Source: Candidatus Enterousia sp. (lineage in GTDB: Bacteria > Pseudomonadota > Alphaproteobacteria > Rs-D84). Taken from it: a stretch of 55,198 nt of DNA. The notes beneath the pieces are model-generated. The model had not been told where the DNA came from and did no database searches. It saw only the letters and a list, made by a program, of their open reading frames with translations. The DNA is taken from positions 1-55,198 of the forward strand of contig JAZROV010000012.1 in the NCBI GenBank assembly GCA_045648885.1, in the 5' to 3' direction. Shown piece after piece: positions 38,946 to 52,987 of the stretch. A program made the position numbers and the translations under genes. Each line of letters begins with the position of its first letter. Position 1 is the stretch's first letter.

Positions 38946-39740
38946 ATGTTAAAAAAAATTATGTTTTTGATGTCTTTGGTTGCGATTGTTTTTTTATCGC
39001 CGTTTGCGGTGGCTGATGACGCTTTTGATTTTGATAATTTTGCGATTATTGATGATGATTCAGACGATATCAACATTCCAAATGTTTCTTTGAATTCTGG
39101 GGCTGGACCTGTTGCGGTTGCACAATTTGATATTGGTGGCGCAATGTTGGGGATGACTTACGATGAAATAAACGACATATTTTTTGAAAATTCATCGCTT
39201 TATGCGCCGCGAAAAAACGACAGCATTATTTATAAAATAAACAAAGAATGGGAATATAATCTGGATTACGAATGTCGGCAAAGTGGTATTTTTGTTCCAG
39301 AACAATTACAAAAATGCATTTATTCTTTGGCACGAAATCGTGGATTGTTGTATGTGTCTGAAATACATCTGGAACGCACGTATACTGGTGAAACGATTGA
39401 TATTTATTTTACCAGCAATGCGTCTGATAATGTTGTTTGGAAAATTGTATATAAAAACGATGCGAATGTTTTAGACGGCCAGGACAGCGAAACATCTCAA
39501 ACATTCGAAAATCAACGCACGCGTAAACTGTTGGCATTTTGGCAGGGAGTATTGGATAAATATGGCGTTCCAAATTCAGATGAAGACAAATGGATATCGT
39601 CTGAAAACGCCTATGACCCAATGATGCGGGCATATCTGGGACAATTAGAATTGATTGACAACGGATTAAATGCCGCAGATTTGGCAAAAAATATCCAGGC
39701 TTCACGTGAAAATTTCCAGGCGAAACCTTATGCATTCTAG
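38946..39740 (+). CDS. Secreted hypothetical protein
   Basis: Signal peptide (..SPFAVADD) followed by an acidic N-terminal stretch. Same operon by spacing (3-nt gap). Confidence 0.5.
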   Translation: MLKKIMFLMSLVAIVFLSPFAVADDAFDFDNFAIIDDDSDDINIPNVSLNSGAGPVAVAQFDIGGAMLGMTYDEINDIFFENSSLYAPRKNDSIIYKINKEWEYNLDYECRQSGIFVPEQLQKCIYSLARNRGLLYVSEIHLERTYTGETIDIYFTSNASDNVVWKIVYKNDANVLDGQDSETSQTFENQRTRKLLAFWQGVLDKYGVPNSDEDKWISSENAYDPMMRAYLGQLELIDNGLNAADLAKNIQASRENFQAKPYAF

Positions 39741-40083
39741 TCAAACATCTTATCAAATTGGTTTATATTCTGAATTTCTGGCGCGATGGTTTTTACGTTT
39801 TCATGGGTACCGCATATTAAAAAGTCGATATATAACCGGTAAAAATACTAACCGCGCCGAAATAGACATCATCGCGCAGCGAAAGAACACTATCGTATTC
39901 ATAGAAGTCAAATCACGTCAAACTGTATCGGCTGCATGGGACGCGATTACACCGGCACAATCGGCACGGTTGCGACGTGCAGCCGAAACTTTTTTGATAA
40001 ACAAACACTGGACTGGAAATGCCAGATTTGATGTGATTGTTGTATGCGGGCACAAAATTCATTGGGCTAAAAACGCGATTTAA
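39730..40083 (+). CDS. yraN: YraN-family (UPF0102) endonuclease-like protein
   Basis: G...E..A..FL...GY.IL..RY pattern and EIDIIAQRKNTIVFIEVKSR. The start is set at MHSSQTSYQIG. Confidence 0.8.
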   Translation: MHSSQTSYQIGLYSEFLARWFLRFHGYRILKSRYITGKNTNRAEIDIIAQRKNTIVFIEVKSRQTVSAAWDAITPAQSARLRRAAETFLINKHWTGNARFDVIVVCGHKIHWAKNAI

Positions 40084-40340
40084 TTTTTTATAACTGCGCT
40101 TTTTATCAATGTGACATCTTCTTTGATTCCGTCTATTTTTAATTGCAATTGACCGATGCCAGATTCCAAAATAGTTGTTCTGTTTTCCAGTGATGTTATT
40201 CGCTGATCTTGGCGCGTCAATTCTTCCAAAGAAGAATCTTGGCGCGCAATCCAATAAACACATCCGAAAATCAAAGCCACCAGGAACCACCCGTCATGCA
40301 ATATTTCCAAAATATTTTTTATATTTTTTTGTTGTGGCAT
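40080..40340 (-). CDS. Small membrane protein with coiled-coil tail
   Basis: 86 aa with one TM helix (WFLVALIFGCVYWI), then heptad-like LEELTRQDQRITSLENRTTILESGIGQLQLKIDGIKEDV. Confidence 0.45.
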   Translation of the reverse strand: MPQQKNIKNILEILHDGWFLVALIFGCVYWIARQDSSLEELTRQDQRITSLENRTTILESGIGQLQLKIDGIKEDVTLIKSAVIKN

Positions 40341-40373
40341 GATTTCATAAATAATTTTCCATAAAAAAGTTGT

Positions 40374-40574
40374 TTATGTTTGATTATTCCCCCGTTGTAT
40401 TAAATTTTCGATTTGGTGAACCAGCGCATTTTGCGCGGCCCACCAACGTAATTCATTATCAGAAACATTCGGTCCAAAAACACGTTCCACGGTTATCGAC
40501 CGCAAATGCGCCAACACGCGTTTGCCGTCAAAACCAGAAAAAGTACGTGCATATTGTTTTTCAATTTCTGTCAT
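40374..40574 (-). CDS. Small phage protein (Bbp19-like?)
   Basis: 66 aa. The pattern F.G.DGKRVLAHLRSITVERVFGPNVSDNELRWWAAQNALV resembles small proteins next to the portal in BPP-1-type podoviruses (from memory). Confidence 0.35.
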   Translation of the reverse strand: MTEIEKQYARTFSGFDGKRVLAHLRSITVERVFGPNVSDNELRWWAAQNALVHQIENLIQRGNNQT

Positions 40575-40589
40575 TTTTATATTGTCCTT

Positions 40590-41813
40590 TTATATTGCAG
40601 ATTCTTCACGTGCCATTTGTGCAATTGGCGCCATGTATTTTAATTCTGCATCACTGTGCAAAGATATTTTTTCTATTAAACCGCGACGCGATAATATCTG
40701 CAGACCGCGTTCACATAACGGTTTAATAAATTCGTGCAGCAACCGACCGTATGTCGCACCCAAAATTCGTATCATATCAGAATTACGTGCTAATATTTCG
40801 GTCGCAGTCATTTCTTTGTCCGACAATAACCCAAGTCTGTCTGCCAGCAATGTATGACGAATACGATCACGTAAATCGCGCAGGACAATTTGCGAAACAT
40901 CAAAATCAGCTCCACTGGACAGCGGCGTCAGCCCAGAACTGCCAACTGCTTTCGGTATAATTGCACCCGGTGTCAAATTTATGTTTGATAAATTGATAAC
41001 ACCATCATCATCTGCCTGCCAGATACCACTGACCGCGATAGTCGCGTTTTTCAAAACTAATTCTACAACTTTGTTTGCGGTTTTTATATCTGGCAACGCG
41101 CGCAACACTGGGCCACGACCATATATTTCCCCACTGACCAACGACCAACGGAAAATTATATATGGATTTGTTTCAAATGTTCCACGTGCAACGATATTAT
41201 TTTCAATATCACCGCCAACATCTATCCATGCTGTAAAATCTTTTCCGATTAAAGATTGCACCAATCTGATTGGTGTTTGCGGGTTATTTTTTATCGTGTC
41301 TTTCATATTTTTCGGGAATATGAAATTCGGATATTTTTCCATAATATCACACGCAGGCAGCGAAGTTGTATGGAAAACCGCACCGTTTAATAAAGCTATA
41401 TCTGTCATTGGAATCGCAGTGAACGAAAAAGCAGAATCTGAACCGATTGGGTTTTCAGACATAAATAAACATGCTGTTCCTAAAACAACTAAATCAATAT
41501 AGCATTGGTGCACTGTTGTATAAAAATTCGAATCATTCAAATGCGCACGCAACATTGCTGTCGCGATTTCTGGGTTTGGAGATAAATCGCTTTCACGAAC
41601 CAGATTCACCCACAAAGATTCTGGTGGCGTCAACAGAGAATACATTGACGCAGCCAAATTGTCTACTGCATCCGCCGCAGTCGCATCAAACAAAGTTGCA
41701 ACATCTGAATCATCGGTCGGGATTGTGTATCGTATTGCTGATTTCCAACGGTTTAACCATATTTCCCGTTCGTCCAGCGCACGTTTATATAATTGCATAA
41801 GATTTTTTTGCAT
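40590..41813 (-). CDS. Portal (head-to-tail connector) protein, T7 gp8-type
   Basis: 407 aa. The N-terminal pattern ..R....WLNRWK.A.RYT.P......LFD.TA.DAVDNLAASMYSLLTPPESLW is typical of the podoviral head-tail connector family. It sits immediately downstream of the terminase nuclease ORF. Confidence 0.7.
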   Translation of the reverse strand: MQKNLMQLYKRALDEREIWLNRWKSAIRYTIPTDDSDVATLFDATAADAVDNLAASMYSLLTPPESLWVNLVRESDLSPNPEIATAMLRAHLNDSNFYTTVHQCYIDLVVLGTACLFMSENPIGSDSAFSFTAIPMTDIALLNGAVFHTTSLPACDIMEKYPNFIFPKNMKDTIKNNPQTPIRLVQSLIGKDFTAWIDVGGDIENNIVARGTFETNPYIIFRWSLVSGEIYGRGPVLRALPDIKTANKVVELVLKNATIAVSGIWQADDDGVINLSNINLTPGAIIPKAVGSSGLTPLSSGADFDVSQIVLRDLRDRIRHTLLADRLGLLSDKEMTATEILARNSDMIRILGATYGRLLHEFIKPLCERGLQILSRRGLIEKISLHSDAELKYMAPIAQMAREESAI

Positions 41814-41834
41814 TTGTTTTTTTCCTTTTGTTTT

Positions 41835-42683
41835 TTATATTTTGAATTCTGTGTTTGCTTTGATTAAACCGTTATTGGTTATCAAAGGCTTAACCGATAT
41901 CGGGTTCATCAGCAGCGCACCTGCAACTGCATCTAAACCGTCATCATGTTCTTTCGAACCAATCGGCGTCCATGCCAGCATTTCAGACAATAACATTGTT
42001 TGTTTTATCCGCGTGTGCATATACAGACGACCTGTGTTTAATATCGGTTCAATGGCATTCAAAATTCTGGTTTCTTTTTTGGTATGATTTGAAATTTGTA
42101 TGATATTTATTGTCATTTGACGCGCATTCGCAACACGTCGCATAATTTCAGGCAACGCATTACCAATACCGTTTATTTCTATACCAATGCGATTTATTCT
42201 GTGTTTTTGCATAAAATTCAGAACTGATTCACATTGGCTGGCCAGTGGGTGCAAATCGTCATCGTCAACCACCATATACAATATGTCGTGAACGAATACG
42301 TTTTTTAATTTGTCGTCACGATAAACCAGTGCGCAAACACTGCCGTCAGATGTGCTGTGGCCGGAAGACGGGTCCCAATACAAACACGCGCCATTTATAT
42401 GATGTTCACCGATTCGCGACGAATGAATATCAAAATCATCGTCATAAAAATGCACACTGCCCGGGTCCAGATGTATTCTTTCTTCTGCGACATATTCCAA
42501 CATCATCTGGGCAGAAAAATGTCGTGGTCCAACAATACGTTCTAATTCGTGTATTTTTTCAATGGGGAACAACTCTGGCCACGCCGGATTTCCAGCATCA
42601 TCGACGATTGGTATTTTTAATTGTTTATACCCACTTAAAAAAGGTATTGAATTATTAAAATTTTCGTTTAATCTAATGGACAT
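41835..42683 (-). CDS. Large terminase, C-terminal nuclease half (separate ORF)
   Basis: NPAWPELFPIEKIHELERIVGPRHFSAQMMLE is followed by an RNaseH-like nuclease with ACLYWDPS(S), RIGIEINGIG and the terminal HDDGLDAVAG motif. An internal ATG at 42683 is preceded by GGAG 8 nt upstream. The track ORF extends to 42758. Confidence 0.75.
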   Translation of the reverse strand: MSIRLNENFNNSIPFLSGYKQLKIPIVDDAGNPAWPELFPIEKIHELERIVGPRHFSAQMMLEYVAEERIHLDPGSVHFYDDDFDIHSSRIGEHHINGACLYWDPSSGHSTSDGSVCALVYRDDKLKNVFVHDILYMVVDDDDLHPLASQCESVLNFMQKHRINRIGIEINGIGNALPEIMRRVANARQMTINIIQISNHTKKETRILNAIEPILNTGRLYMHTRIKQTMLLSEMLAWTPIGSKEHDDGLDAVAGALLMNPISVKPLITNNGLIKANTEFKI

Positions 42684-44232
42684 GGACTTTACTCCGAAAA
42701 CTTTACCCACAAATTTAGAGGCCGAACAGGCAGTTCTGGCCGCGGTTTTAATGAACAACCGTGCTTTGGAATCTGTATCCGAATTTTTATTGCCAGAACA
42801 TTTTTCGCATCCTGCCCACCAAGAAATCTATAAATTGGCACTGCGGCAATTTTCGGCGGGTATTCCGTTTGATATAATCACTGCGAAAACATATCTGGAA
42901 CAACAGGGTGTTCTGGAATCTGTTGGTGGGGTTGAATACCTGACTAAATTGGCGGGCGCTGGTGCAACGGTTGTAAATGTTGAACATTATGGTCGTATTA
43001 TTTTTGACAATGCCCGTCGTCGTGATTTAATCGGTTTGGGTCAAAATATAATTGACAGCGCCTATACCGAAGACATCGATAACACCGTTGATTCGCAAAT
43101 TGAAAACGCAGAGCAAAAATTATTCAATTTGGCATCAACTGGGCAATCTGAACAAAACATAGTTTCATTGGCAGACGCATTAAAAGGCGCCCTGCAAGAG
43201 GCCGAAATCGCATACAAAGCCGATGGCAAATTGTCTGGTTTAACCACCGGTTTGGATGAATTAGATAAATCGTTAAGTGGCCTGCATCATTCTGATTTAA
43301 TCATTGTCGCCGGACGTCCAGGTATGGGAAAAACGACATTGGCTATGAACATTGCTTTTAATGCTGCTAATGCTATTTTCAACGGCCGTGCGAATGAAAA
43401 ATATCACGGTGCGGTTATATTTTTCAGTCTGGAAATGTCGAACCAGCAATTGGCCGCACGTGTGTTGTCTTCGCAATCTAAAATACCGGCATCCCACATG
43501 CGCGAGGGTAATTTGACAGACGAAGATTTCATGAAAATGTCTGAATATTCAAATGCGTTGTCAAAAATACCTTTGGTTATAGATGACACTGCCGATATGT
43601 CGGTACCCATGATAAAAACGCGCGCGCGTCGTATTGCTCGTAAATTTGGTGGTGTTGCGTTAATTGTTATCGACTATTTACAATTGATGAAATTGCCTGG
43701 GGGCAAAAACAGCGACAACCGCGTCCAAGAATTATCCACAATCACTCGTGGCTTGAAGATTCTGGCCAAAGAATTGGATGTTCCTGTTATAACTTTGTCG
43801 CAATTATCGCGCAGCGTCGAACAACGTGATGACAAACGACCAATATTGTCTGATTTGCGTGATTCAGGTTCTATTGAACAAGATGCAGATATCGTGATGT
43901 TCACGTATCGTGATGAATATTATTTAAGCAATCGCTCACCTGAAAATCGTCTGTCTGGTAATGCGCCACAGAAAGTGACTGAAAATTGGCAAAACCGTTT
44001 AGATAAATCTCGGAACAAAGCAGATATTATCATCGCGAAAAACCGTCATGGCAAACCAGAAACCGTGCATTTAAGTTTTGTCGGCGAATACTATCTGTTT
44101 GACAATTTGAACCAATTTGGACCTCAGCCGATTATACCGGACGATGGTTTTTCGGTGCAATATTCATCTAATGCTGATTCTGGGGTTCAAACTGTTGCTG
44201 ATATAAACGATATTCCTGATGATATAATTTAA
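42676..44232 (+). CDS. dnaB: Replicative DNA helicase DnaB with acidic C-terminal extension
   Basis: N-terminal LPTNLEAEQAVLAAVL, Walker A GRPGMGKTT, Walker B IVIDYLQLM, then LSQLSRSVEQR and SDLRDSGSIEQDAD. About 45 extra residues end in ..DINDIPDDII. Confidence 0.92.
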   Translation: MDMDFTPKTLPTNLEAEQAVLAAVLMNNRALESVSEFLLPEHFSHPAHQEIYKLALRQFSAGIPFDIITAKTYLEQQGVLESVGGVEYLTKLAGAGATVVNVEHYGRIIFDNARRRDLIGLGQNIIDSAYTEDIDNTVDSQIENAEQKLFNLASTGQSEQNIVSLADALKGALQEAEIAYKADGKLSGLTTGLDELDKSLSGLHHSDLIIVAGRPGMGKTTLAMNIAFNAANAIFNGRANEKYHGAVIFFSLEMSNQQLAARVLSSQSKIPASHMREGNLTDEDFMKMSEYSNALSKIPLVIDDTADMSVPMIKTRARRIARKFGGVALIVIDYLQLMKLPGGKNSDNRVQELSTITRGLKILAKELDVPVITLSQLSRSVEQRDDKRPILSDLRDSGSIEQDADIVMFTYRDEYYLSNRSPENRLSGNAPQKVTENWQNRLDKSRNKADIIIAKNRHGKPETVHLSFVGEYYLFDNLNQFGPQPIIPDDGFSVQYSSNADSGVQTVADINDIPDDII

Positions 44233-44298
44233 TTATTTTTCTTGCCAAACAAATAAATTTTTAATATCATTTTGTCAACATATACCAAGGAGTTTACG

Positions 44299-45306
44299 AT
44301 GGCCCTAGAAGAAATCATTTTTCCAAACAACATCAGAAACATTCGCGCCGCCAAAGGCATGAAAATGACTGAATTGGCACGCCAGGCGAATCTGTCGTTG
44401 TCTGCAGTATCGAAAATTGAAAAAGGTGTCAGACGTTTAAATCAAAAACAATTGTTAAATGTATGCACTATATTGGGCTGCAAATTATCTGACATTTTCA
44501 TTCACGAATCAGACGCAGTCGCCAATCAATGGCAAAACGAAATCAAACGCCGTTTAACGGACAACGAAGACAGCGGATTGAAAGTCTTTGGTTCCGGGCT
44601 TCGTAAAATTCGTCAACGCGCTGAAAAAACCATCGCAGAAACTGCGAAAATGGCCGGAATGACATTGTCTGTGTATCATAAAATCGAAGTTGGCCAACGC
44701 GAAGTTTATGAAGATGAAATCGATATTTTGGCGAAAACTTTTGGTTATACATCAAAACAATTGTTCGATGAAATCGCAAAACTTTATAACGCCGGCGAAT
44801 TGACCAAACAAATAAACAAAGTCAAAGAACGCGTCAAATCTGTTTTGGAACCTGGCAATCCAGAATCTGGATTGGATGTTCATGGTGGTCTTTTTGGTGC
44901 GCAATTGTATGATAATGCGCGCAAAAAATTGGTTCCTGTGTTCGGCAAACCTGATGGTAAATCAATCAAACTGAAAAAATCTGATGAAACGATGATTGTC
45001 GCTCCGGGGGCGTTGGAAGGCAAAAACGGAATCTATGCGATTATTCCGAATTCTAAGCGTTTGGGCGGATTTATCCCGGAAACATCATATATTTTCGCAG
45101 ACGCTAATGAAAAACCATCTGTGGGTGATTTAGCAGTATGCATTGATTCAGATTTTTCAAAAATGGATTCTGATGAAACAGTGTCTGCCCAGATTGCGGT
45201 GGTTCGTCAAGATTCACATGGCAAATTATATGGACATATATCTAATCCTGATGAAAAAATACATTTCCAAACGATGCATAAAATTGTTATGATTGTTATG
45301 AAATAA
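44299..45306 (+). CDS. Double XRE-type HTH regulator with S24/CI-like C-terminal beta domain
   Basis: RBS AAGGAG upstream of ATG 44299. HTH 1 is IRNIRAAKGMKMTELARQANLSLSAVSKIEKG. HTH 2 is LRKIRQRAEKTIAETAKMAGMTLSVYHKIEVG. The C-terminus is VPVFGKPDG....GDLAVCID, LexA/CI-like but with no clear Ser-Lys dyad. Confidence 0.6.
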   Translation: MALEEIIFPNNIRNIRAAKGMKMTELARQANLSLSAVSKIEKGVRRLNQKQLLNVCTILGCKLSDIFIHESDAVANQWQNEIKRRLTDNEDSGLKVFGSGLRKIRQRAEKTIAETAKMAGMTLSVYHKIEVGQREVYEDEIDILAKTFGYTSKQLFDEIAKLYNAGELTKQINKVKERVKSVLEPGNPESGLDVHGGLFGAQLYDNARKKLVPVFGKPDGKSIKLKKSDETMIVAPGALEGKNGIYAIIPNSKRLGGFIPETSYIFADANEKPSVGDLAVCIDSDFSKMDSDETVSAQIAVVRQDSHGKLYGHISNPDEKIHFQTMHKIVMIVMK

Positions 45307-45334
45307 TAAAAACTGTCAAGGAGGGACATAACAC

Positions 45335-45976
45335 ATGCAACAACAAGCACACATAATTGCCCAGCGTTTGTTAAACCTTTACCGTCAAGAACACGTGATA
45401 AATGGTGGCTGGACGGCCGTGAACAAGGTTTTAATTGCAGAATCTGATGATCCCCAGGTCATAGAAGAATTAAAAAAATTGCCGACTGGAAAACGTCTGG
45501 CGACGCACATCGATAATTTGCGCAGCGGTAAAACCCCGATGAATACAATTGAAAGCGAATTGTTACCATACGGCGGTTTGATTGCCAGCCAAGAAATGCG
45601 TTTTTCTTTGACAGACGAAGAAATAACCCAATTAAAATCTGCATTGGATACATTTGAAACCACACCTGAAAATTTAAAGAACATCAAAAATATGGAATGT
45701 GTCCGGAAATTTGGCGCAGACTGGGTAGATGCTATTAAATCTGTGTTATCAAAAGATCCTGAATATCTTGCAAAATGGGACAATGTTGTCCGCACATCAA
45801 AGGCATACCAGATGTGGGATTCTGCAAAACAGTTGGTGTCTGAAACACTGACCGAACGCAATCGCGCTCAAATTCAGGCCGACATGCCAGAATTCGAGAC
45901 GTATTTACCAATGTTTGGCGACCAAGGCCGTGCGATATTGGCAAAATTGCGAACATTTATGTCATCTGCATCTTGA
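45335..45976 (+). CDS. Hypothetical protein
   Basis: 213-aa helical-looking ORF with RBS AGGAGG upstream. It is the last gene of the plus-strand block and ends 3 nt before the stop of the convergent terminase ATPase ORF. Confidence 0.5.
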   Translation: MQQQAHIIAQRLLNLYRQEHVINGGWTAVNKVLIAESDDPQVIEELKKLPTGKRLATHIDNLRSGKTPMNTIESELLPYGGLIASQEMRFSLTDEEITQLKSALDTFETTPENLKNIKNMECVRKFGADWVDAIKSVLSKDPEYLAKWDNVVRTSKAYQMWDSAKQLVSETLTERNRAQIQADMPEFETYLPMFGDQGRAILAKLRTFMSSAS

Positions 45977-45979
45977 TTT

Positions 45980-46585
45980 TTACACTGAATATATCGTATC
46001 GCGCGCATGTGGGGTTCCGATATAGATAATCGTTCCATGTGGCGATAAAATAAAGTCTAATTCTCGCAATCTTTCGCGCAGGTTATCTCTTTTTTGCTGT
46101 GTGTTGCAAGTGTTTGGGACTTCGACGTCATCACATATCACTAAATCAGAGCGCATTCCTGTGATATTGCCAGAAATTCCCTGACAGATAACAGACGGTT
46201 CACGAATACCGATTGGACGTTTAATAGTTATTTTATGCGTACCCCACTCTTTTTTGACATCTGGTATTATGTCGGCGCACCACGGATGATTTTCCAGAAT
46301 ATTTTTTATATGCGAAACCATCCGCGATGCTAAATTCGATTCAGCAGACAAAATCAATATACGACTTTCTGGTCGAAAGCATAATACACAGGCTGCAAAA
46401 ATACCGACAACTGTTGATTTTCCTGAATGTCGAAAAGCGTTTAACAACCCACGATGCGGTTCATCATTTAATACTTCAATTAAAAACCGCATTATCTCTT
46501 GGTGATGTTTTGGTGTTGAAAACCCCAACAATCTGTTCCACGCGTCCAGAAAATCAAAGGCTTCCGTAATCGTCACTGTTTTCAT
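45980..46585 (-). CDS. Large terminase, N-terminal ATPase half (separate ORF)
   Basis: Walker A RHSGKST, Walker B DLVICDDVE, coupling motif IYIGTPHARD, then a stop after ..TIYSV. 201 aa. Confidence 0.75.
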   Translation of the reverse strand: MKTVTITEAFDFLDAWNRLLGFSTPKHHQEIMRFLIEVLNDEPHRGLLNAFRHSGKSTVVGIFAACVLCFRPESRILILSAESNLASRMVSHIKNILENHPWCADIIPDVKKEWGTHKITIKRPIGIREPSVICQGISGNITGMRSDLVICDDVEVPNTCNTQQKRDNLRERLRELDFILSPHGTIIYIGTPHARDTIYSV

Positions 46586-47102
46586 GATCTGCCGGTTCGG
46601 TTATAGAACCATAATCGTTTATCAATTTCGGCAATGCACCATCTAACACGTTCAACAGATTATAATACAAACCTAAGACGCCACCGCCGGAAAGTTTATC
46701 AGCGATTACATCCAACGTATAATCTATTTTAGTCAACAAATTATCGTGCACGTTTTCCCATCCAGCCAAATCGACATTCACACCCCATAAATCTTGCAAA
46801 GCCGCAAGCATAAAATTAAAATCTGAATTTAAATCTTCAGGATCTATTTTAACCGTCGGCTGGTAATCTATGACGCGGTCCAGCGAAATTTGGCGAAATA
46901 TATCGATATGTTTTCCAGACTCAGGGGCCGTATCAAATACCACTAAACCACCAACAAAATTACCATTTGGTGAAACAGCATATTGTGTTTCGTCCAACAA
47001 AGTATTATCAATTGCGACTTTGACATCTGCATTTTGAAAAAATGGAAAAGTGAACACAAACTCTGTGTCTGTGCCGTTGGCTGTGTATGAAATTTTATAC
47101 AT
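46554..47102 (-). CDS. T7 gp17-type tail-fibre N-terminal (tail-attachment) domain protein, no distal receptor-binding part
   Basis: YTANGTDTEFVFTFPFFQNADVKVAIDNTLLDETQYAV parallels the T7 fibre N-terminus (YQLDGSNRDFNIPFEYLARKFVVVTL..). Only 182 aa. Confidence 0.5.
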   Translation of the reverse strand: MYKISYTANGTDTEFVFTFPFFQNADVKVAIDNTLLDETQYAVSPNGNFVGGLVVFDTAPESGKHIDIFRQISLDRVIDYQPTVKIDPEDLNSDFNFMLAALQDLWGVNVDLAGWENVHDNLLTKIDYTLDVIADKLSGGGVLGLYYNLLNVLDGALPKLINDYGSITEPADHENSDDYGSL

Positions 47103-47111
47103 GATGTCCCC

Positions 47112-47459
47112 CTAGCCTGCTATTTTATCGATTTTTGACAACCACGATTTCAATAAATTTGGTCTTGTTGCTTTGGTATTTTGTATTTTTTGTAAATTAT
47201 TTTTGCGCTTGTCGTCATATGGCGCGCTGGTTTCATCGCGCAGACGTTTTAATACAGCCTGTTCAGAAAAACCGGTGCCTGAATTTCCTGTTGCACCGTA
47301 TTTAGCACGCTGGTTTGACAAAGCTTTTTTTATCAAATTTATTTTTGTTGCTTCATCTTGCGCCATTTCAGCCAAGATTTGTTGCCGCTGGTTTTCAGCC
47401 GTTTTTTTGGCATCTTTGTAATCTAAAACTTTTGTGACATCGGATACAAGTTGTCCCAT
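47112..47459 (-). CDS. Small Lys/Gln-rich virion-module protein
   Basis: 115 aa, helical and basic, lying between the nozzle-like and fibre-stub genes. Confidence 0.4.
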   Translation of the reverse strand: MGQLVSDVTKVLDYKDAKKTAENQRQQILAEMAQDEATKINLIKKALSNQRAKYGATGNSGTGFSEQAVLKRLRDETSAPYDDKRKNNLQKIQNTKATRPNLLKSWLSKIDKIAG

Positions 47460-47478
47460 AGAAAACTCCTTTGTTTTT

Positions 47479-49185
47479 TTATATTGAATATATGCCGTCC
47501 ACAGTCACAGACAACACGGTCATTGGTAATTGTTCGCTGCTGGAAATTGTCCATAACGGTTGCATAGTATCGCTTTGCGTTCCCAACAAATTGATAGACA
47601 AATCACCGCTGAAACCTGGGCTGTCGCTGGCATAGGCATAATTTGGTATCTCTACACGATATCCATTCACGAATAATGTCTTTGTATTTAACACCCGCAT
47701 AGATATTTTTCGCGCACGTAATTTTTTCGGTGAATGACCGTTAACTATCATTGGAAACGCGGATATTGTATAATCAAAATCATACGCACCTGCATCATTC
47801 AGACAATCTGAATCAAATTTTTCTAGATAATTTGTCGTGCCACGTTTTACGATGACATATGTATAATTATCCAAAACCGCAACATATTTAAACAAACCAT
47901 CTGTTTTATATGTCGCCCATGCAGAAATATTTTGATGCTTGTTCAACACTGCCATCACACCATCATTCATAACAATAAATAATTGATGAGAATTTTGGTT
48001 GTACGCCATACTGATTGGGTTGTTTATTAAATGTTTTGCAAATGGACATAAATCAACTGCATTGTAATGTTCGCTAAGCGCATCCAAATCTAATTCGCGA
48101 ATGTCTTTGCCAGATTGAGATACAAACACCGTTCGTGAATCTATGTTTTGTGGTGGCAGATATGCGCTGGAAAAACACCCAATACTTGTATGCTGTTTTA
48201 TATCAACATTTGACGGTGTCAACGGAGAATTCGAAATCGCCCATTCACCCTGACTTGTCAATATTTGTAATTTATCACTGCTGACCATTGTCCAAATTTG
48301 GTGGTGTTGAGCAGACAACAGTGTCACATATATTGCTTCGTCATCCAGACCAGTCCCTGCGCTGAAATTATCATGATTACCGACTTGCGACATCCAAATA
48401 TAATTTGGTGCAGATTTCGTAGCACCAAAAATCAATCGATTTTGATGGAACGAAACACAACTTGGCCATCCGCGTTTATCATTGAATACAGATTCATACC
48501 AATCATAAATCGGACTGCCGGGCACAGAATAATTACCGTTTATATGAACTGTGGCTACACGTGCATCTTGAACTGCTGCGACAACCCACTGTTTGTCATC
48601 AACATATAATTGTTCGCCAACCGCATCTTCGGTCCAAAAATCTGCACTGGTTGTGAATGTCGCATAATTATTACCCAAAGCGCTAGAAGTGATGGTAATA
48701 GATATTCCGGCGGCATCATCAAATTTCATAAACGGCATATTTATATCACCGTTTGATTTTACTGTGAAAGCAAATTGCGACAATGCGAAACCACTGGCGG
48801 TTTTAGTCAACACACGTGGTGAATAATCAGGATGCACAAAAAATATTTTATTAAAACGTTGGGCATACTGTAATTTAGACAAATCTGTTCCGGCCCATGG
48901 TGCATTTATTGTCGTGATTCTGGTATCATTACTGTAAATTTCCATTGATAAATTATATATCACCAACAAATATTTTTCTGTTTCTGATATCGGAAAAGGC
49001 ACCAATATTGCACCATTGGAAACATTTTTAATTTTTTGTAAACCACATCTGCGTTTTAAACCGCCAGATTCTAAAACATCTACATTTTCCAGTTTTGCCA
49101 GTCCATTATTATCATTTGTTGCATAAAATTCAGATGACATTTCACCACAGTTAAAAGAATTTTGTGTTTTAAGAAAATTTCCCAT
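47479..49185 (-). CDS. Tail tubular protein B / nozzle-like protein
   Basis: 568 aa. The N-terminus QNSFNCGEMSSEFYA....L.NVDVLESGGLKRRCG resembles the conserved start of podoviral nozzle proteins, and the remainder is beta-rich. It follows the adaptor-like gene. Confidence 0.45.
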   Translation of the reverse strand: MGNFLKTQNSFNCGEMSSEFYATNDNNGLAKLENVDVLESGGLKRRCGLQKIKNVSNGAILVPFPISETEKYLLVIYNLSMEIYSNDTRITTINAPWAGTDLSKLQYAQRFNKIFFVHPDYSPRVLTKTASGFALSQFAFTVKSNGDINMPFMKFDDAAGISITITSSALGNNYATFTTSADFWTEDAVGEQLYVDDKQWVVAAVQDARVATVHINGNYSVPGSPIYDWYESVFNDKRGWPSCVSFHQNRLIFGATKSAPNYIWMSQVGNHDNFSAGTGLDDEAIYVTLLSAQHHQIWTMVSSDKLQILTSQGEWAISNSPLTPSNVDIKQHTSIGCFSSAYLPPQNIDSRTVFVSQSGKDIRELDLDALSEHYNAVDLCPFAKHLINNPISMAYNQNSHQLFIVMNDGVMAVLNKHQNISAWATYKTDGLFKYVAVLDNYTYVIVKRGTTNYLEKFDSDCLNDAGAYDFDYTISAFPMIVNGHSPKKLRARKISMRVLNTKTLFVNGYRVEIPNYAYASDSPGFSGDLSINLLGTQSDTMQPLWTISSSEQLPMTVLSVTVDGIYSI

Positions 49186-49203
49186 GAATGTTCTCCCTGA
49201 ATT

Positions 49204-49722
49204 TTAAAATCTTGAATTTATCAAAGAAAAATCATCAATATTTGATTGATTTGATGTTGTGCTGTCTATAAATTTTGCTGATTGGAATTCTGATTCATAT
49301 AATGCAGTCATCATTTTGAAAACATTTGCATCACCAACCAATGGGATACAAAATTCCATTGCCAGTTTTGTTGCAACCAAACTTGCAAAATAACTTGGGA
49401 AACATTCGGTTTCAACACGCACGATTGCAGTAATATCTAATGAATCTGATTGAATGACTATTTTATTTCCTATGATTTTTCCTTCGCTTTTGATGATTCT
49501 TAAAACATCATTTGGAATTACAAAATCACCATCTGAATTTTTATTCAAAGTAATATTTTGCGTTGCAAAACGCCACGGGAACATAGACAACAATGTGTCC
49601 ACAACCGAATCAAACAAAGTTCTGGCTATTTGCGCAGACGCAGAATCTTCACGCAATGATTGAATTGGTTTTTCGCCCAATTTCAACAAAGCCATCGAAC
49701 ATAAATCTATTTTTGTAAACAT
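49204..49722 (-). CDS. Tail tubular protein A / adaptor-like protein
   Basis: 172 aa. The pattern IDLCSMALLKLGEKPIQSLREDSASAQIARTLFDSVVDTLLSMFPWRFA is recurrent in podoviral gp11-like adaptors. Confidence 0.45.
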   Translation of the reverse strand: MFTKIDLCSMALLKLGEKPIQSLREDSASAQIARTLFDSVVDTLLSMFPWRFATQNITLNKNSDGDFVIPNDVLRIIKSEGKIIGNKIVIQSDSLDITAIVRVETECFPSYFASLVATKLAMEFCIPLVGDANVFKMMTALYESEFQSAKFIDSTTSNQSNIDDFSLINSRF

Positions 49723-49792
49723 ATTTCGTCCCTTTTGATAGCAAAAAGGGCCGCATTACACGGCCCAATTACAAACATAAAACGTTGCGTTT

Positions 49793-50023
49793 TTAAGATA
49801 ACGCACCAACAGTAATCGAATCTGCAGCAACAGCCAATACTTTGATTGATGTGCCATTTGATCCGTTTATGATGATGATATCACCGCTGTTCATCAAAGA
49901 TTTTACATTGGCGAAATAGCCAGACGCTGTAATCGTTGCCAATGTTGCATTTTCTTTGTAATGCCACAACGTAAAACCGTTTGCGTACGCAATCACAGAC
50001 AAATTTTTATTTTGAAATGCCAT
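49793..50023 (-). CDS. Small protein downstream of capsid (possible decoration/cement protein)
   Basis: 76 aa, beta-rich, 35 nt after the capsid gene. Confidence 0.35.
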   Translation of the reverse strand: MAFQNKNLSVIAYANGFTLWHYKENATLATITASGYFANVKSLMNSGDIIIINGSNGTSIKVLAVAADSITVGALS

Positions 50024-50057
50024 TTGATTTTCCTTTTGGTTATGTTATGAATTTTTT

Positions 50058-50885
50058 TTAAGCGGCGTCATCATCGCATTTGATACGAACGATACCTTCT
50101 GCGTCAATCAAGACTGCGCCTTGAGACATGCTGTTGCTGATAAAGTGCGCAGCACGTTCACCATGCCATGTGATGTCTGTTTTTACTTCTTGACCACATG
50201 CGTGCCCAATGCTGGATGCATGATAGATAAAGCAATCACGGTCATCAGTGTTGGCTAATGGCAAAGAATTGCACAATATCCAATTGATGCCCAACCATTT
50301 TCTAGATTCACAACCATCGACTAATGGTGTTGCACCGCCGACATAATCAGCAGATACAAATTCGTTCATAGACATCAATTCATTCCATTGATGCACACCG
50401 ACTACTGCAAATCTGCGACCATCATCTGGAACATCGTTTTCATTTAATTTTTCCACAGCAGACATAATCAATGCTTTGGTTAAACCAGTTGAATAATCGC
50501 CAACATACTGTGTAGCATTATTCATTGCTGCGATAATCAATTCATCTGTTTTGCGTCCCAACGCGTATGCACCGGCCGACGCAACAACACGACGTTCATC
50601 AACATTGGTTTTCAATTCATCCAACGCATCAATCCAATCGCCTGCATAGTAATCTTGTAATGTGCATTCAACCGGAGTATGATTCAAATTCATCACTGGA
50701 ACAATACCATGACGCGATTTAGTGCTGGCGATACCTTTGCCAACTTTTTGGAAAGTTGTAGACATTCCAACGACCCCAGATTTGCTGCGAATCGTAGAAC
50801 GTAATTTTGTGCCCATTTGCTGATAAGCCAAATGAACATCTGCTTCAAATTGTTTGATAAACACTTGATCTACAGAAAGAGACAT
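50058..50885 (-). CDS. Major capsid protein
   Basis: 275 aa. VDQVFIKQFEADVHLAYQQMGTKLRSTIRSKSGVVGMSTTFQKVGKGIA..HG.VPVMNL.H..VECTL.DYYA matches a capsid family common in alphaproteobacterial podo-type prophages (from memory). Its position after the scaffold fits. Confidence 0.7.
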   Translation of the reverse strand: MSLSVDQVFIKQFEADVHLAYQQMGTKLRSTIRSKSGVVGMSTTFQKVGKGIASTKSRHGIVPVMNLNHTPVECTLQDYYAGDWIDALDELKTNVDERRVVASAGAYALGRKTDELIIAAMNNATQYVGDYSTGLTKALIMSAVEKLNENDVPDDGRRFAVVGVHQWNELMSMNEFVSADYVGGATPLVDGCESRKWLGINWILCNSLPLANTDDRDCFIYHASSIGHACGQEVKTDITWHGERAAHFISNSMSQGAVLIDAEGIVRIKCDDDAA

Positions 50886-51020
50886 AAAAAATCCTTTTTG
50901 TTTTTTTAATTAAAATAAACGCCTTGACCAGGCGACACCACATTTTGAAATGATGGTTATGCGAAAAATTCGCGCCATAAAAACAAAATAAAAAACGGGT
51001 CCAAAACGGATTATCCAATA

Positions 51021-51099
51021 AAAAATTCAGTCAGACATAAAATAATATCTGACTGAACAATTTATCAAAAAAGCCCCAAAATCCTACAATTCTGGGGCT
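51021..51099 (-). terminator. Two tandem rho-independent terminators after the H1-like gene
   Basis: On the minus strand: AGCCCCA..TGGGGCT followed by T6 (51067-51099), and TTCAGTCAGA..TCTGACTGAA followed by T5 (51021-51057). Confidence 0.7.
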
Positions 51100-51126
51100 A
51101 AAAATGAATATAATAAATATTATTTA

Positions 51127-51450
51127 TTATTTTCTTTTTGCAACTTTTTTTGCAGCTGGTTTTTTCGCAGCAACTTTTTTAGCAGCTGGTTTTTTAGCAA
51201 CTACTTTTTTTGCAACTGGTTTTTTTGCAGCTGGTTTTTTCGCAACTACTTTTTTAGCAGCTGGTTTTTTCGCAACTACTTTTTTTGCAACCGGTTTTTT
51301 AACCGCAACTTTTTTTGCAGGTGCTTTTTTAGCAACTGGTTTTTTCGCAGCTGGTTTTTTAACTGCAACTTTTTTCACTGGTGCTTTTTTCGCAGCTGGT
51401 TTCGCAGCAGCTTTTGCGCAACCACATTTTTTCTTAGAACCAAAGAACAT
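51127..51450 (-). CDS. Histone H1-like Lys/Ala-rich repeat protein (Hc1/AlgP/BpH1-like nucleoid protein)
   Basis: 107 aa made of AKKPA/AKKVV pentapeptide repeats. It has a strong RBS (AAGGAGAG), a putative own promoter (TTGAAT..TAGAAT, approx 51490-51520) and a double terminator. Confidence 0.75.
   Translation of the reverse strand: MFFGSKKKCGCAKAAAKPAAKKAPVKKVAVKKPAAKKPVAKKAPAKKVAVKKPVAKKVVAKKPAAKKVVAKKPAAKKPVAKKVVAKKPAAKKVAAKKPAAKKVAKRK
51140..51420. repeat. Imperfect ~15-nt (5-codon) tandem repeat inside the H1-like gene
   Basis: gcagctggttttttc / gcaactactttttt units are reiterated about 18 times on the plus strand. Confidence 0.8.
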
Positions 51451-51556
51451 AATTCTCTCCTTTTAAGTTTTTGGATAGAACAAAATTATTTTGTTCATGA
51501 TTCTATTTTATATGAATTGAATTCAATAGTCCAGAATAAAAGTTAAAAAATATATT

Positions 51557-52213
51557 TTATGAATATAATTTTTTAAAACCGTTTTCAATTTTACGAACAT
51601 ATTCTGGATCTTGGTCGCGCCAATATTTTGGATCGCGCATCATGTTACGCAAATCATCATCAGATAAATTTTCAGCAACATTTTTATCGGTTAAAACTTC
51701 TGGTTCAAACGATTGCATCATCTTGTACACGCCTTGGATTCCCTGGGGTGTAGAGCATAATTCATCAAACGCATCGGCGGGTAAAAATTTTTCACCGAAC
51801 GCTTTTATTTCACGCAAAGCATCATTCATTTTTTGTGTTGAACCGAAAAATTTTTTTAATTCATTCATTGCATTTGTTTCGTTTTGCAAATCGAATAAAT
51901 TTTTTATTGTTGGTTGTAAAATTTTTTCTGCGATGTCATAAATTTTTTCAACTTGTTTATTTGTTAAACCAATTTCGTGAAATTGATTACGAACCGATTC
52001 GTCATCGAACAAAGCATTTGTTGGATATTCCGACGCATCATCTGGAACACCGATTGCATGATTAAATTTTTGTTTTGTTGCATCATCACTATCATCGTTC
52101 GGCACAGAAATCATAGACCCCATCTTTTTTTCCAATTCACAATATGATTTGACCAGGGCTTGTGTATTTAATTCGCCATTTTCATCAAGAAATTTTTCAG
52201 GGACATTATCCAT
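51557..52213 (-). CDS. Capsid scaffolding protein
   Basis: 218 aa, acidic and helical. The N-terminus PEKFLDENGELNTQALVKSYCELEKKMG is typical of podoviral scaffold proteins. Confidence 0.5.
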   Translation of the reverse strand: MDNVPEKFLDENGELNTQALVKSYCELEKKMGSMISVPNDDSDDATKQKFNHAIGVPDDASEYPTNALFDDESVRNQFHEIGLTNKQVEKIYDIAEKILQPTIKNLFDLQNETNAMNELKKFFGSTQKMNDALREIKAFGEKFLPADAFDELCSTPQGIQGVYKMMQSFEPEVLTDKNVAENLSDDDLRNMMRDPKYWRDQDPEYVRKIENGFKKLYS

Positions 52214-52427
52214 TCTTTTTTCCTTTGGTTGAAGATTCTTGTTTCAAAAAATAAATTCCGCCCAACGTGAACACAGTTTGCAAAACAGAAAACAAATCTT
52301 GTTCACCGATTAAATACGCCCCGACAGCAGAAACAATACCGACGCTGGCGATTACATAGGTTTTACGACCTGATAAATATCCACCTTTGATAAATTTGTT
52401 CATGATTTTTTCCTTTGTTTGCGTCAA
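52206..52427 (-). CDS. Holin-like small membrane protein
   Basis: 73 aa with two TM helices and a charged C-terminus (KQESSTKGKKNG). It overlaps the hydrolase gene by 4 nt. Confidence 0.45.
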   Translation of the reverse strand: MTQTKEKIMNKFIKGGYLSGRKTYVIASVGIVSAVGAYLIGEQDLFSVLQTVFTLGGIYFLKQESSTKGKKNG

Positions 52428-52834
52428 AGATAAAACAGCATATCATCAATTTCTGCAATATAACCGCGCGCCACGGCCCATTGTGGCAAAACATTCGCAT
52501 GATGAAATTTTGTTGCGCCGAACACAGAATCTTTTAAATTACCGCGAATCATTTTTTGCACAACGCGCAGACACATTTGAAATTTTCTGTCATTCGCAGG
52601 AACATTTATATATTCATGGCGCGGCGAATTTTTATCCAGCACATCAAAAACAGTATTATCATTTATGATATCTTCGAACGATTTATCGAATTTCATATGA
52701 ATGTTGTAAATGACGGACGCCATAGCTTCCACGACTGGCAACGAATGTGCAAATGTTTCTGCATAAATAATTCGTGCGATTTTATATGGCACGCGTTGCG
52801 AATCATCTTTATTTTCAATCAAAGTTATTTGCAT
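52424..52834 (-). CDS. Cell-wall hydrolase (SleB/Hydrolase_2-like)
   Basis: 136 aa. ARIIYAET......EAMASVIYN and ..ATKFHHANVLPQWA resemble the cell wall hydrolase family pattern (A..I.GEA...........V..N...; ..FH....P.W). Confidence 0.55.
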   Translation of the reverse strand: MQITLIENKDDSQRVPYKIARIIYAETFAHSLPVVEAMASVIYNIHMKFDKSFEDIINDNTVFDVLDKNSPRHEYINVPANDRKFQMCLRVVQKMIRGNLKDSVFGATKFHHANVLPQWAVARGYIAEIDDMLFYL

Positions 52835-52865
52835 GTTTGACCTGTTGTTTTTTTATTAAAAAAAA

Positions 52866-52938
52866 CACCCACAAAAATGTGGGTGTGATGAAAGGCCAAG
52901 AATAAAAAAATCCGCACACTTGGCGGACAAATTCTTCA
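52866..52938 (-). terminator. Two minus-strand terminator hairpins between birA and the phage-derived cluster
   Basis: On the minus strand: TCCGC..GCGGA followed by T7 (52914-52938), and CACCCAC-attttt-GTGGGTG followed by T8+ (52866-52895). Confidence 0.55.
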
Positions 52939-52987
52939 TTCTTGATGTTTCACATTATATCACAAATTGACATGAAAGTCAAGATGT

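Follow-up and report, generated by a model that had tools for sequence, protein, structure and literature searches.

The DNA analysed here is a stretch of 55,198 nt, henceforth referred to as the window, read from contig JAZROV010000012.1 of Candidatus Enterousia sp. (assembly GCA_045648885.1). At positions 40080–52834 the window contains a cluster of fifteen minus-strand open reading frames (ORFs) with signatures of phage morphogenesis, packaging or lysis, spanning 12.7 kb between the housekeeping genes yraN and birA. Particle, packaging and lysis genes together account for ~ 9.4 kb of this span. An earlier note on the same DNA had counted fourteen intact, co-oriented minus-strand ORFs. The phage-like ORFs are real, but there are fifteen, as in the note's own list, and they do not form a contiguous, wholly co-oriented series. 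A plus-strand block of 3.3 kb (42676–45976) containing dnaB, a gene for a 335-aa helix-turn-helix protein (HTH-335) and an ORF termed p213 separates the terminase ATPase ORF from the terminase nuclease ORF, leaving the large terminase gene (terL) in two parts, a split that the note had missed. As judged from the comparisons described below, the cluster is a vertically inherited and selectively kept remnant of a short-tailed phage of the T7/pelagiphage type, of which the head, tail, packaging and lysis genes are left, and it is fixed beside birA in the chromosome of Candidatus Enterousia and its close relatives.

Gene content of the cluster

In the direction of transcription, the cluster begins with genes for a cell-wall hydrolase, a 73-aa membrane protein, a scaffolding protein, a histone H1-like protein, the major capsid protein, a 76-aa protein (s76), tail tubular protein A (tubeA) and the tail nozzle. 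These are followed by a 115-aa basic protein, a tail-fibre stub, the two terminase fragments (terN and terC), the portal, a Bbp19-like protein and an 86-aa protein. Profile matches were obtained for the hydrolase, scaffold, H1-like protein, capsid, tube, nozzle, fibre, terminase, portal and Bbp19, in agreement with the identities proposed from the sequence beforehand (Table 1). The 73-aa holin-like protein and the 115-aa basic protein had no family match in the profile searches. The 86-aa protein, which gave a sub-threshold match to XhlA (E 0.065), is possibly a spanin- or XhlA-like lysis accessory protein. No small terminase was recognisable among the cluster ORFs.

Table 1 Features of the cluster and its borders. 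Positions are those of the window; locus numbers refer to the 80 species loci compared, and dN/dS ratios are approximate.
Feature	Position	Strand	Match or assignment	Loci	dN/dS
yraN	39670–40083	+	housekeeping neighbour of the cluster		
86-aa protein (g86)	40080–40340	−	N-terminal membrane anchor and coiled coil in sequence	69 (51–81% identity)	0.14
Bbp19-like small phage protein	40374–40574	−	PF25181, E 2e-8		
Portal, 407 aa	40590–41813	−	Head-tail_con PF12236, E 1e-77		0.07
terC, TerL C-fragment, 282 aa	41835–42683	−	PF22530 and PF17289; remaining ATPase domain and T7-type RNaseH-like nuclease		0.21
DnaB replicative helicase, 518 aa	42676–44232	+	host-type		0.095
HTH-335, 335-aa regulator	44299–45306	+	HTH_3/HTH_31; two XRE-type HTH domains and beta-rich C-domain		0.12
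p213, 213-aa ORF	45335–45976	+	last gene of the inserted host operon	74 (45–72% identity)	
terN, TerL N-fragment, 201 aa	45980–46585	−	Terminase_6N; ATPase core with Walker A, Walker B and C-motif		0.10
Tail-fibre N-terminal (tail-attachment) stub, 182 aa	46554–47102	−	phrog_1640, E 6e-16; PF03906	36 of 75	0.16 where present
115-aa basic helical protein	47112–47459	−	in the position of T7 gp13	75–77	0.23
Tail tubular protein B/nozzle, 568 aa	47479–49185	−	phrog_376, E 4e-96; PDB 8ck1 'Tail Nozzle', E 4e-27	intact in 77 of 78	0.20
tubeA/adaptor	49204–49722	−	PF17212 Tube, E 1e-5	intact in 79	0.21
Terminator/attenuator hairpin T5	49748–49766	−	between s76 and tubeA	66 of 79, strict criteria	
s76, head-associated small protein, 76 aa	49793–50023	−	phrog_18004, E 6e-14		0.15
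Major capsid protein, 275 aa	50058–50885	−	Phage_capsid_2 PF19821, E 2e-72; PDB 9eg4_A, E 6.5e-25	80	0.09
Capsid-gene non-coding leader	50954–51016	−	two short conserved hairpins		
Terminator hairpins T3 (51072–51099) and T4 (51025–51058)	51025–51099	−	3' of the H1-like gene	at least one in 69 of 70	
Histone-H1/Hc2-like AKK-repeat basic protein	51127–51450	−	PF07382, E 2e-15	70 of 70	
T7-type scaffolding protein	51557–52213	−	PF05396, E 2e-10	intact in 69	0.26
73-aa holin-like membrane protein	52206–52427	−	hydrophobic core in sequence; putative role, from position	intact in 69	0.28
Cell-wall hydrolase, SleB-like	52424–52834	−	probable endolysin; PF07486/Hydrolase_2, E 1e-7	intact in 69 of 69	0.36
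Tandem intrinsic terminators T1 (52910–52928) and T2 (52865–52886)	52865–52928	−	leader hairpins and T-runs	nearly all	
Sigma-70 promoter TTGACT-N17-TGaTATAAT	52954–52982	−	immediately after the birA stop codon		
birA	52988–53746	−	housekeeping neighbour on the other side		
p148, orphan winged-helix DNA-binding protein, probably 139 aa	53640–54086	−	AlphaFold2 (AF2) model, predicted local distance difference test (pLDDT) 86	syntenic in 66	0.33
h80, 80-aa Cro/C1-type HTH protein	54113–54355	−	weak HTH_26 match, E 0.002	56	

Conservation and selection

Homologous loci were collected by scanning one genome per GTDB species with the capsid sequence. This yielded 310 stretches encoding a relative, of which the best 80 (81–99% capsid identity) were compared. 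They come from metagenome-assembled genomes (MAGs) labelled Candidatus Enterousia or uncultured Alphaproteobacteria, obtained from rumen, horse, yak, goat and other guts, and one lies in a chromosome-level MAG assembly of 958,618 bp (metaFlye 'circ'). Capsid homologues at 82–98% identity number in the thousands, with 3,889 proteins at E ≤ 1e-10. In the order Rs-D84, of which Enterousia is part, all members have reduced genomes of 0.75–1.0 Mb (PMC12306168), lack a tricarboxylic acid cycle and respiration, and are suspected symbionts (PMC12306168; PMC13196213). The cluster is mentioned in neither of these papers, and no paper tying Enterousia or Rs-D84 to phage-like clusters or gene transfer agents (GTAs) was found in the literature.

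For synteny, every protein of the window was compared with the 80 loci by tblastn. Gene order and orientation were identical in 80/80 loci wherever the contig reaches, including the succession of terN, p213-hth-dnaB on the opposite strand, and terC. The conserved layout runs from p148 and birA through the hydrolase to terN, then p213-hth-dnaB, terC, portal, bbp19 and g86, with yraN beyond where the fetched flank reaches. The ORFs were full length in ~ 70–80 loci each, and one short nozzle ORF was seen among 78. The fibre stub is cleanly absent from 39 of 75 loci, leaving a gap of 0–50 bp, and loci with and without it are scattered among close as well as more distant species groups.

Ratios of nonsynonymous to synonymous divergence (dN/dS) were calculated by the Nei-Gojobori method from pairs with dS < 1.5 only. 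Values for all 15 ORFs were 0.07–0.36, most of them 0.14–0.28, and are approximate because dS was ~ 1.1–1.3, close to saturation; dnaB (0.095) and p148 (0.33) served as comparison genes. The dN/dS of birA was dropped owing to an unreliable codon alignment (median proportion of nonsynonymous differences, pN, 0.68), and protein identity was used instead. BirA and p148 are only 47–63% and 37–63% identical across loci, compared to 81–99% for the capsid and 72–92% for the portal. Pairwise distances of cluster genes correlated with those of dnaB and p148 (Spearman rho 0.48–0.73), as did the distances of dnaB and p148 with one another (0.60). Synonymous divergence (proportion of synonymous differences, pS) was lower in the capsid (0.59) and scaffold (0.51) genes than in their neighbours (~ 0.68–0.70), and capsid, scaffold and tubeA had the lowest effective codon numbers (Nc 36–39), which may reflect high expression or selection acting on the RNA.

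Signs of mobility were also sought. No scanned window ORF had a Pfam match to an integrase or recombinase, and no direct repeats of at least 12 nt occur between the cluster flanks, which have only two AT-rich 11-mers in common. The G+C content (GC) of the cluster, 0.34–0.41, and its codon usage are like those of the rest of the window. All three observations, made in the earlier note as well, thus hold. Beyond yraN and birA, the flanks contain further housekeeping genes encoding BamA, RseP, UppS, SecDF, FtsK, GltX and Der.

Synteny, intactness, dN/dS and co-divergence with host neighbours together exclude a prophage in decay as well as an element moving on its own, and domestication of the cluster is strongly supported by these comparisons. 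The earlier proposal of selection rather than decay is thereby borne out: the outcomes it had named as contrary (a locus without the cluster, an integrase or att sites in relatives, disrupted ORFs, dN/dS near 1) were looked for and none occurred. Likewise, the pseudogenes, patchy presence and relaxed selection of a decaying cryptic prophage were not found. As in GTAs, the particle genes are resident without functions for integration, excision or their own replication, they are inherited vertically in synteny (80/80 loci, with correlated distances), and they are under purifying selection as indicated by dN/dS, with dS near saturation, and by intact ORFs and invariant motifs. The sole replication gene is the host-type dnaB; the previous statement that replication and lysogeny-switch genes are missing is incorrect if taken literally for the coordinates given, where dnaB and an HTH gene do lie, although this DnaB is not of phage type.

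Split terminase and embedded dnaB operon

The terL gene is, on the evidence of the alignments, cut cleanly after its ATPase C-motif by a host operon that contains dnaB, and the halves are separate ORFs that retain the catalytic motifs. In terN, Walker A (HSGKST) was found in 74/75 loci, the C-motif GTPH in 75/75, and Walker B with the catalytic Glu in 75/75 as (I/V)(I/L)CDD(V/I)E, in 64 of them as IICDDVE. The terC nuclease motifs WDPS, ExNG and HDDG(L/I)DA were each present in 73/73 loci. Concatenated TerN and TerC gave one collinear alignment with an undivided TerL, that of Acinetobacter phage TPWB-05. The TerL of Roseomonas mucosa is likewise intact (495 aa); its residues 22–213 correspond to TerN 11–199 and residues 222–478 to TerC 15–264. 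Only 8 residues of the Roseomonas protein remain unaligned between the two fragments, no more than a few loop residues are missing, and the break point lies directly after the C-motif (IGTPH..D..Y). The TerL of Pelagibacter phage Hodr was discarded as a reference for the split, its alignment revealing no real homology. A search of 1.8 billion representatives clustered at 50% identity showed that the nearest TerL relatives outside Enterousia (≤ 51% identity) are mostly 450–510 aa long; the split is consequently a derived trait of the Enterousia clade.

Two ways of restoring a single protein were considered. Programmed excision rejoining terL, as in skin or nifD elements, was rejected: the 3.3-kb insert is not bordered by direct repeats, and a recombinase is lacking. 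Inteins or trans-splicing were not supported, given that there is no Hint/intein domain match and that start and stop codons are present in either half separately. The lack of repeats and of an intein domain points to two TerL polypeptides that would act together.

The embedded DnaB looks like the host's housekeeping helicase and not a phage DnaB, as judged from its profile scores: it exceeded the thresholds of NF006606 (604.7 > 540) and TIGR00665 (502 > 385) and fell below that of phage_DnaB TIGR03600 (418 < 498.65). HTH-335, whose database-called length is also 335 aa, gave a mediocre AF2 model (pLDDT 63.5), and fold matches for its C-domain, for which an S24/LexA-like fold had been considered, were divided between lambda-CI-like and cupin-like structures with low template modelling (TM) scores. 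For p213 there was no family, PDB or PHROG match and no detectable relative outside the clade.

The junctions of the insert are tight. The stop codons of p213 and terN are 3 nt apart, and at the other end the start codons of dnaB and terC overlap within a CATG palindrome, as they do in 73/73 aligned sequences. The terC Shine-Dalgarno sequence (GGAG) lies inside dnaB codons. At terC codons ~ 12–16, the alignment reads as synonymous sites conserved as TTGAA/AAAAAAGG on the opposite strand, the place where the −35 element of a putative leaderless-type dnaB promoter would lie.

Promoter, terminators and candidate regulators

The earlier note had not remarked on the conserved control region of promoter and terminators ahead of the cluster. 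The host-type sigma-70 promoter upstream of the hydrolase gene (CTTGACTTT-N17-TGATATAAT) matches 11/12 consensus positions and has an extended −10 element. Its elements CTTGACTTT and TGATAnnAT are shared by every one of the 63 aligned loci, and elsewhere in the window a comparable promoter is seen only ahead of the tRNA-Ala/His genes. The promoter contains an inverted repeat, TTGAC-N6-GTCAA, over the −35 element and spacer that is kept by the close clade and some of the distant one and could be an operator or antiterminator-loading site.

Transcripts from this promoter would meet T1 after ~ 45 nt. The stem sequences of T1 and T2 differ between species and still pair through compensating changes, and a T-run follows each. 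The ~ 30 nt between T2 and the hydrolase ATG are too few to hold a second promoter. Downstream, the T3/T4 site holds a mean of 2.2 terminators per locus. Apart from these sites and T5, terminator-like hairpins are conserved at no other junction; after terN they were found in 3/74 loci only.

The capsid leader contains hairpin A (GGATAATCC..GGACCC, 50997–51016) and hairpin B (TATGGCGC..GCATAACCA, 50954–50979), with compensatory changes in 6/7 pairs predicted by RNAalifold. Rfam returned nothing near threshold for the promoter leader or the capsid 5' region. A candidate sigma-54 promoter (TGGCGC...TTGCA) ahead of the capsid gene was rejected, since its spacing varies among species and its inner bases covary, as expected of a hairpin.

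Three conserved proteins are candidate read-through factors or regulators: h80, p148 and HTH-335. h80, with a mean identity of 88% over 56 loci, lies directly upstream of p148 in 54/55 and is the first gene of an h80-p148-birA unit preceding the cluster. The p148 family comprises 118 proteins, the few named or checked matches being from Enterousia-type MAGs; its fold matches were limited to generic winged-helix regulators and, weakly, the T4 MotA N-domain, none with E < 1e-3, when it was considered as a factor of the GafZ, Q or OmpR type. In the GTA of Caulobacter (CcGTA), the cluster is read through internal terminators by GafZ, a form of antitermination control (PMC11150451). By analogy, the Enterousia layout would be that of a termination-gated late operon, with read-through suggested by the arrangement of promoter and terminators.

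Relatives and origin

The closest cultured phage is Pelagibacter phage EXVC031P Hodr (capsid 42%, portal 33% identity). Closer in sequence is MT838907.1, a human-faecal 'Bacteriophage sp.' scaffold of 5084 bp with higher GC (capsid 63%, portal 42%), in which the order is a small MGG-protein, portal, Bbp19, scaffold, capsid, s76, tubeA and nozzle. This scaffold may belong to a true phage, or it may be a GTA-like locus that was packaged from an alphaproteobacterium of the human gut. A homologue of s76 follows the capsid gene in both MT838907 and Rhodospira, with a small ORF at that position in Hodr, and the Bbp19-like gene after the portal gene also recurs in MT838907 and Rhodospira.

Relatives in IMG/VR fall into three classes. 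The first consists of Enterousia fragments with the split terminase (loci L084–L096); these are pieces of the host-fixed cluster, dnaB included, that are catalogued as viral genomes (UViGs). The second is a distant lineage (GC 0.51, capsid 73%) and the third comprises high-GC contigs of 12–13 kb with the order portal...fibre...intact TerL.

The layout of the distant lineage is seen on a contig of 64 kb (JGI 3300010049, positions 1–20819; L172/L173). First come hydrolase-scaffold-H1-like and, after an M48 peptidase and two further ORFs, capsid-s76-tubeA-nozzle-basic-terN. On the opposite strand there follow dnaB and a gene for 834 aa, and beyond them lie terC and then unrelated genes; no portal gene was found near terC on the 64-kb contig, and p213 is absent. 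All particle genes are intact though host genes are interleaved, which is, by analogy, the pattern of long-domesticated GTAs. The 115-aa basic protein is also kept there and in another relative (L097). Since this lineage retains both terN-dnaB-terC and the H1-like gene, the insertion of dnaB in terL and the H1-like gene are old. Between the scaffold and capsid genes, an AKK-rich ORF of 52–164 aa occurs in 70/70 Enterousia-type loci and in this distant relative. It is absent from MT838907 and Roseomonas. Its product could act in DNA condensation or charge neutralisation.

The high-GC class occurs in cultured bacteria, namely Roseomonas mucosa and R. gilardii (L164–L169) and Rhodospira trueperi (L170), and in further loci (L098–L113). 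In R. mucosa and R. gilardii a cluster of ~ 13 kb occupies one and the same chromosomal context, and none of the genes seen encodes an integrase; the R. trueperi cluster adjoins ligA, and capsids are at least 90% identical in five Roseospira/Rhodospira species. The compact order in Roseomonas/Rhodospira is portal-scaffold-capsid-tubeA-nozzle-fibre-TerL-hydrolase, and the Enterousia order is permuted relative to it, as had been noted relative to T7-like phages. No description of Roseomonas GTAs or of these clusters was found in the literature; they are possibly undescribed GTA-like elements in culturable bacteria, or may be defective prophages.

Other features of the window

A GC-rich palindromic repeat, CCCCCGTGGGGGAGAAT, resembling repetitive extragenic palindromes (REP) or miniature inverted-repeat transposable elements (MITE), has 9 occurrences within 2 mismatches compared to 0 expected (596–612, 708–724, 27745–27803, 29274–29331, 54744–54760, 54956–54972 and 55068–55084). 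Inverted pairs flank a 406-aa ORF at 27881–29101 with no Pfam match, and the repeats explain the GC peak near 28–30 kb. On the plus strand, an apparent gene fusion at 14086–16095 joins YbeY endoribonuclease and apolipoprotein N-acyltransferase (Lnt) domains in one 669-aa ORF. Distant from the cluster, a 652-aa plus-strand protein (12115–14073) contains a Phage_lysozyme domain followed by TPR repeats.

Discussion

It is somewhat probable, from gene content and conservation, that the cluster is a selectively maintained remnant that makes DNA-filled particles with a two-piece terminase, the cargo being host DNA as in a GTA. TerN and TerC would act together in filling capsids built from the capsid protein, scaffold and portal, and the capsids would be completed by the adaptor, the nozzle and, in about half of the species, the fibre stub. 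Particles would be released through lysis by the hydrolase, the holin-like protein and the anchor/coiled-coil protein. As there is no recognisable small terminase and the element has no replication or excision of its own, the cargo would have to be host chromosomal DNA, which would amount to GTA-like behaviour.

The strong constitutive-type promoter would be held off by the two leader terminators and modulated by the three internal ones, keeping particle production rare. With terminators in both leader and operon, production would depend on their being read through or on antitermination, as it does in CcGTA and the late operons of lambdoid phages. Because nothing terminates after terN, the late transcript would probably continue antisense through the dnaB operon; a single transcript of this kind is the simplest way in which terC, portal, bbp19 and g86 might be expressed. 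More speculatively, the DNA may be delivered to other cells, with recombination in a reduced genome as the benefit.

Several points weigh against this reading. All Enterousia-type genomes are MAGs from an uncultured lineage, and the approximate nature of the dN/dS ratios has been noted above. No homologue of Q, N, RfaH or GafZ and no other antiterminator was identified at the locus, and the promoter with T1 could instead be a small-RNA gene. No functional precedent or paper was found in the literature for a 'split terminase'. T7-type terminases normally cut at defined ends and do not package by headful, so that random packaging cannot be presumed. In the solved capsid homologue 9eg4 the asymmetric unit contains 7 chains, which suggests T=7 capsids in the relatives; were the Enterousia particle also T=7, ~ 30–40 kb could fit and the whole 12.7-kb locus would be packageable, unlike in classic GTAs. 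Delivery is placed in doubt by the fibre, which is only a stub and is missing from more than half of the species examined, and by profile searches that recognised no ejection or core proteins of T7 size among the cluster ORFs.

In the main rival, particles are made and selected for a purpose other than transfer (PBSX-type killing, controlled lysis with release of DNA or nutrients, or decoys) and packaged host DNA is incidental. The reduced or missing fibre and the lack of recognised ejection proteins speak for it, the conservation evidence fits such a role equally well, a conserved lysis cassette heads the operon, and the same alternative has been raised for the GTA-like element of Faecalibacterium (FpGTA) by its authors (PMC12946183). 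We nevertheless consider it unlikely. Few parts of the cluster are as constrained as the portal and the two terminase fragments (dN/dS 0.07–0.21, invariant motifs), which argues that packaging itself is selected, and killing would normally need a receptor-binding device, the weakest part here.

It is more improbable still that only a part of the cluster functions, be it the lysis genes, the H1-like gene or a capsid compartment, while the rest persists through linkage to dnaB and slow deletion. An essential dnaB is indeed embedded, rearrangements seem rare in these genomes, and the varying presence of the fibre stub shows that some parts are dispensable. Hitchhiking, however, cannot explain 15 ORFs with dN/dS of at most 0.36 that are intact in ~ 70–80 species near dS saturation. 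Reduced genomes of ~ 0.9 Mb purge useless DNA, and the genes of the distant relative are separated by host genes and still intact.

A still-mobile element, that is, a minimal temperate phage or satellite using the embedded dnaB and HTH genes as its own module or relying on a helper phage, would account for the helicase and XRE-type regulators inside or beside the cluster and for the listing of fragments as viral in IMG/VR. We regard this as highly improbable in view of the invariant birA-side neighbours and internal order, the co-divergence with host genes, the lack of integrase and att repeats, the scoring of DnaB as an alphaproteobacterial housekeeping equivalog, the interrupted terminase and the dispersal of the distant relative's genes among host genes. 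An inert, decaying prophage remnant, to which the heavy loss relative to related phages (polymerases, core proteins, full fibre) and the two-piece terminase gene might point, is scarcely credible with ORFs intact in ~ 80 species at dN/dS well below 1, invariant catalytic motifs and non-coding control elements conserved through compensatory changes.

A bolder extension of the GTA-like reading is that the position of dnaB within terL is itself functional. Antisense late transcription, running head-on against a leaderless-type dnaB promoter in the first terC codons, would couple commitment to particle production with helicase shutdown, and dnaB transcription would conversely keep terC and portal off. 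Together with the Roseomonas, Rhodospira and Roseospira clusters, the element would then form a second, podovirus-derived GTA lineage in Alphaproteobacteria that predates the Enterousia radiation and uses a two-piece terminase. We hold this extension to be doubtful.

Comparison with known systems places the cluster near several of them. With GTAs generally (RcGTA, BaGTA, BhGTA/VSH-1, CcGTA) it shares chromosomal, phage-derived head, tail, packaging and lysis genes without an integrase or replication genes of their own, vertical inheritance under purifying selection and, in the distant relative, dispersal among host genes; terminators inside the cluster are shared with CcGTA (PMC11150451). It differs from them in the TerL split around dnaB and in its uncultured, genome-reduced gut host. 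There is no sequence family in common with the RcGTA type, whose head-tail cluster has an HK97-type g5 capsid and a long non-contractile tail: the Enterousia capsid belongs to PF19821 and the tail is T7-like, and the profile searches gave no tape measure, tail tube or long tail as in Rhodogtaviriformidae.

The earlier note had supposed that known GTAs are all long-tailed and that a short-tailed one would be new, which no longer applies. FpGTA, described in 2026, is a podovirus-like GTA-like element for which particles, ~ 8.5–9 kb of DNA and proteomics were reported (PMC12946183). By its published description it resembles the Enterousia cluster in having a compact operon (~ 10 kb) with TerL, portal, scaffold, capsid and proteins of short-tailed-phage type, in being near-ubiquitous in a gut bacterial genus and in lacking replication genes. 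Unlike the Enterousia cluster, it has a Firmicutes (Bacillota) host, a candidate TerS and a second tail/lysis operon, and its TerL is not split.

T7-like and pelagiphage podoviruses (Hodr, HTVC010P-type, Vibrio podophages) have homologous portal and capsid proteins, at the identities given above for Hodr, and the same order of scaffold, capsid, small protein, tube A and nozzle, and the Enterousia TerL is of the same type as T7 'DNA maturase B' (about 25–27% identical). Their genomes, however, measure 32–40 kb and encode polymerases, full fibres and large proteins of the internal core, and the Enterousia portal module is relocated after TerL. No RNA polymerase, replication module or gp14–16 ORFs characteristic of Autographiviridae were found in the cluster or window. 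A capsid-forming satellite of the cf-PICI (phage-inducible chromosomal island) type is likewise not matched, in that an integrase and a primase-replicase are lacking, tail genes are present and the position is fixed.

The Roseomonas/Rhodospira clusters are alike in sequence (capsid 53–61%, portal ~ 42–45%, TerL N-part ~ 45–49% identical), in size (~ 12–13 kb) and in lying beside housekeeping genes without a visible integrase. They differ in their intact TerL (480–495 aa), full-length fibre (414–785 aa), T7 order from portal to TerL, candidate small ORF before TerL, and lack of an H1-like gene and dnaB. Finally, the lambdoid late operon (pR'-tR' with Q) also has a strong constitutive-type promoter followed at once by terminators and then by lysis and morphogenesis genes, with more terminators within the operon, and differs in possessing an antiterminator of the kind for which Enterousia offered no homologue.

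Domesticated phage particles (GTAs, viriforms) are known, and after FpGTA the short-tailed morphology is no longer new (PMC12946183). What appears to be new is an alphaproteobacterial lineage unrelated to RcGTA/BaGTA in a genome-reduced order, with relatives in Rhodospirillales/Acetobacteraceae, as well as the conserved two-piece terminase enclosing a replicative helicase gene and the conserved gate of promoter and tandem terminators. Loci catalogued in IMG/VR as viral contigs or prophages behave as host genes, an annotation artefact that matters for virome and prophage surveys. The two-piece terminase would show that TerL need not be a single chain, its ATPase core and its lid/nuclease part being able to function as separate polypeptides. 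With dnaB embedded in the cluster, a coupling of replication to the decision to make particles can be put to the test, and the related clusters in culturable Roseomonas and Rhodospira provide an experimental entry point. Should the particles prove real, ~ 1% of a 0.9-Mb genome would be given over to a particle that packages DNA under host control throughout a whole order of uncultured gut and rumen Alphaproteobacteria, a podovirus-derived lineage would join the few known GTA families, and lineages otherwise exposed to genome decay would have a candidate route for recombination.

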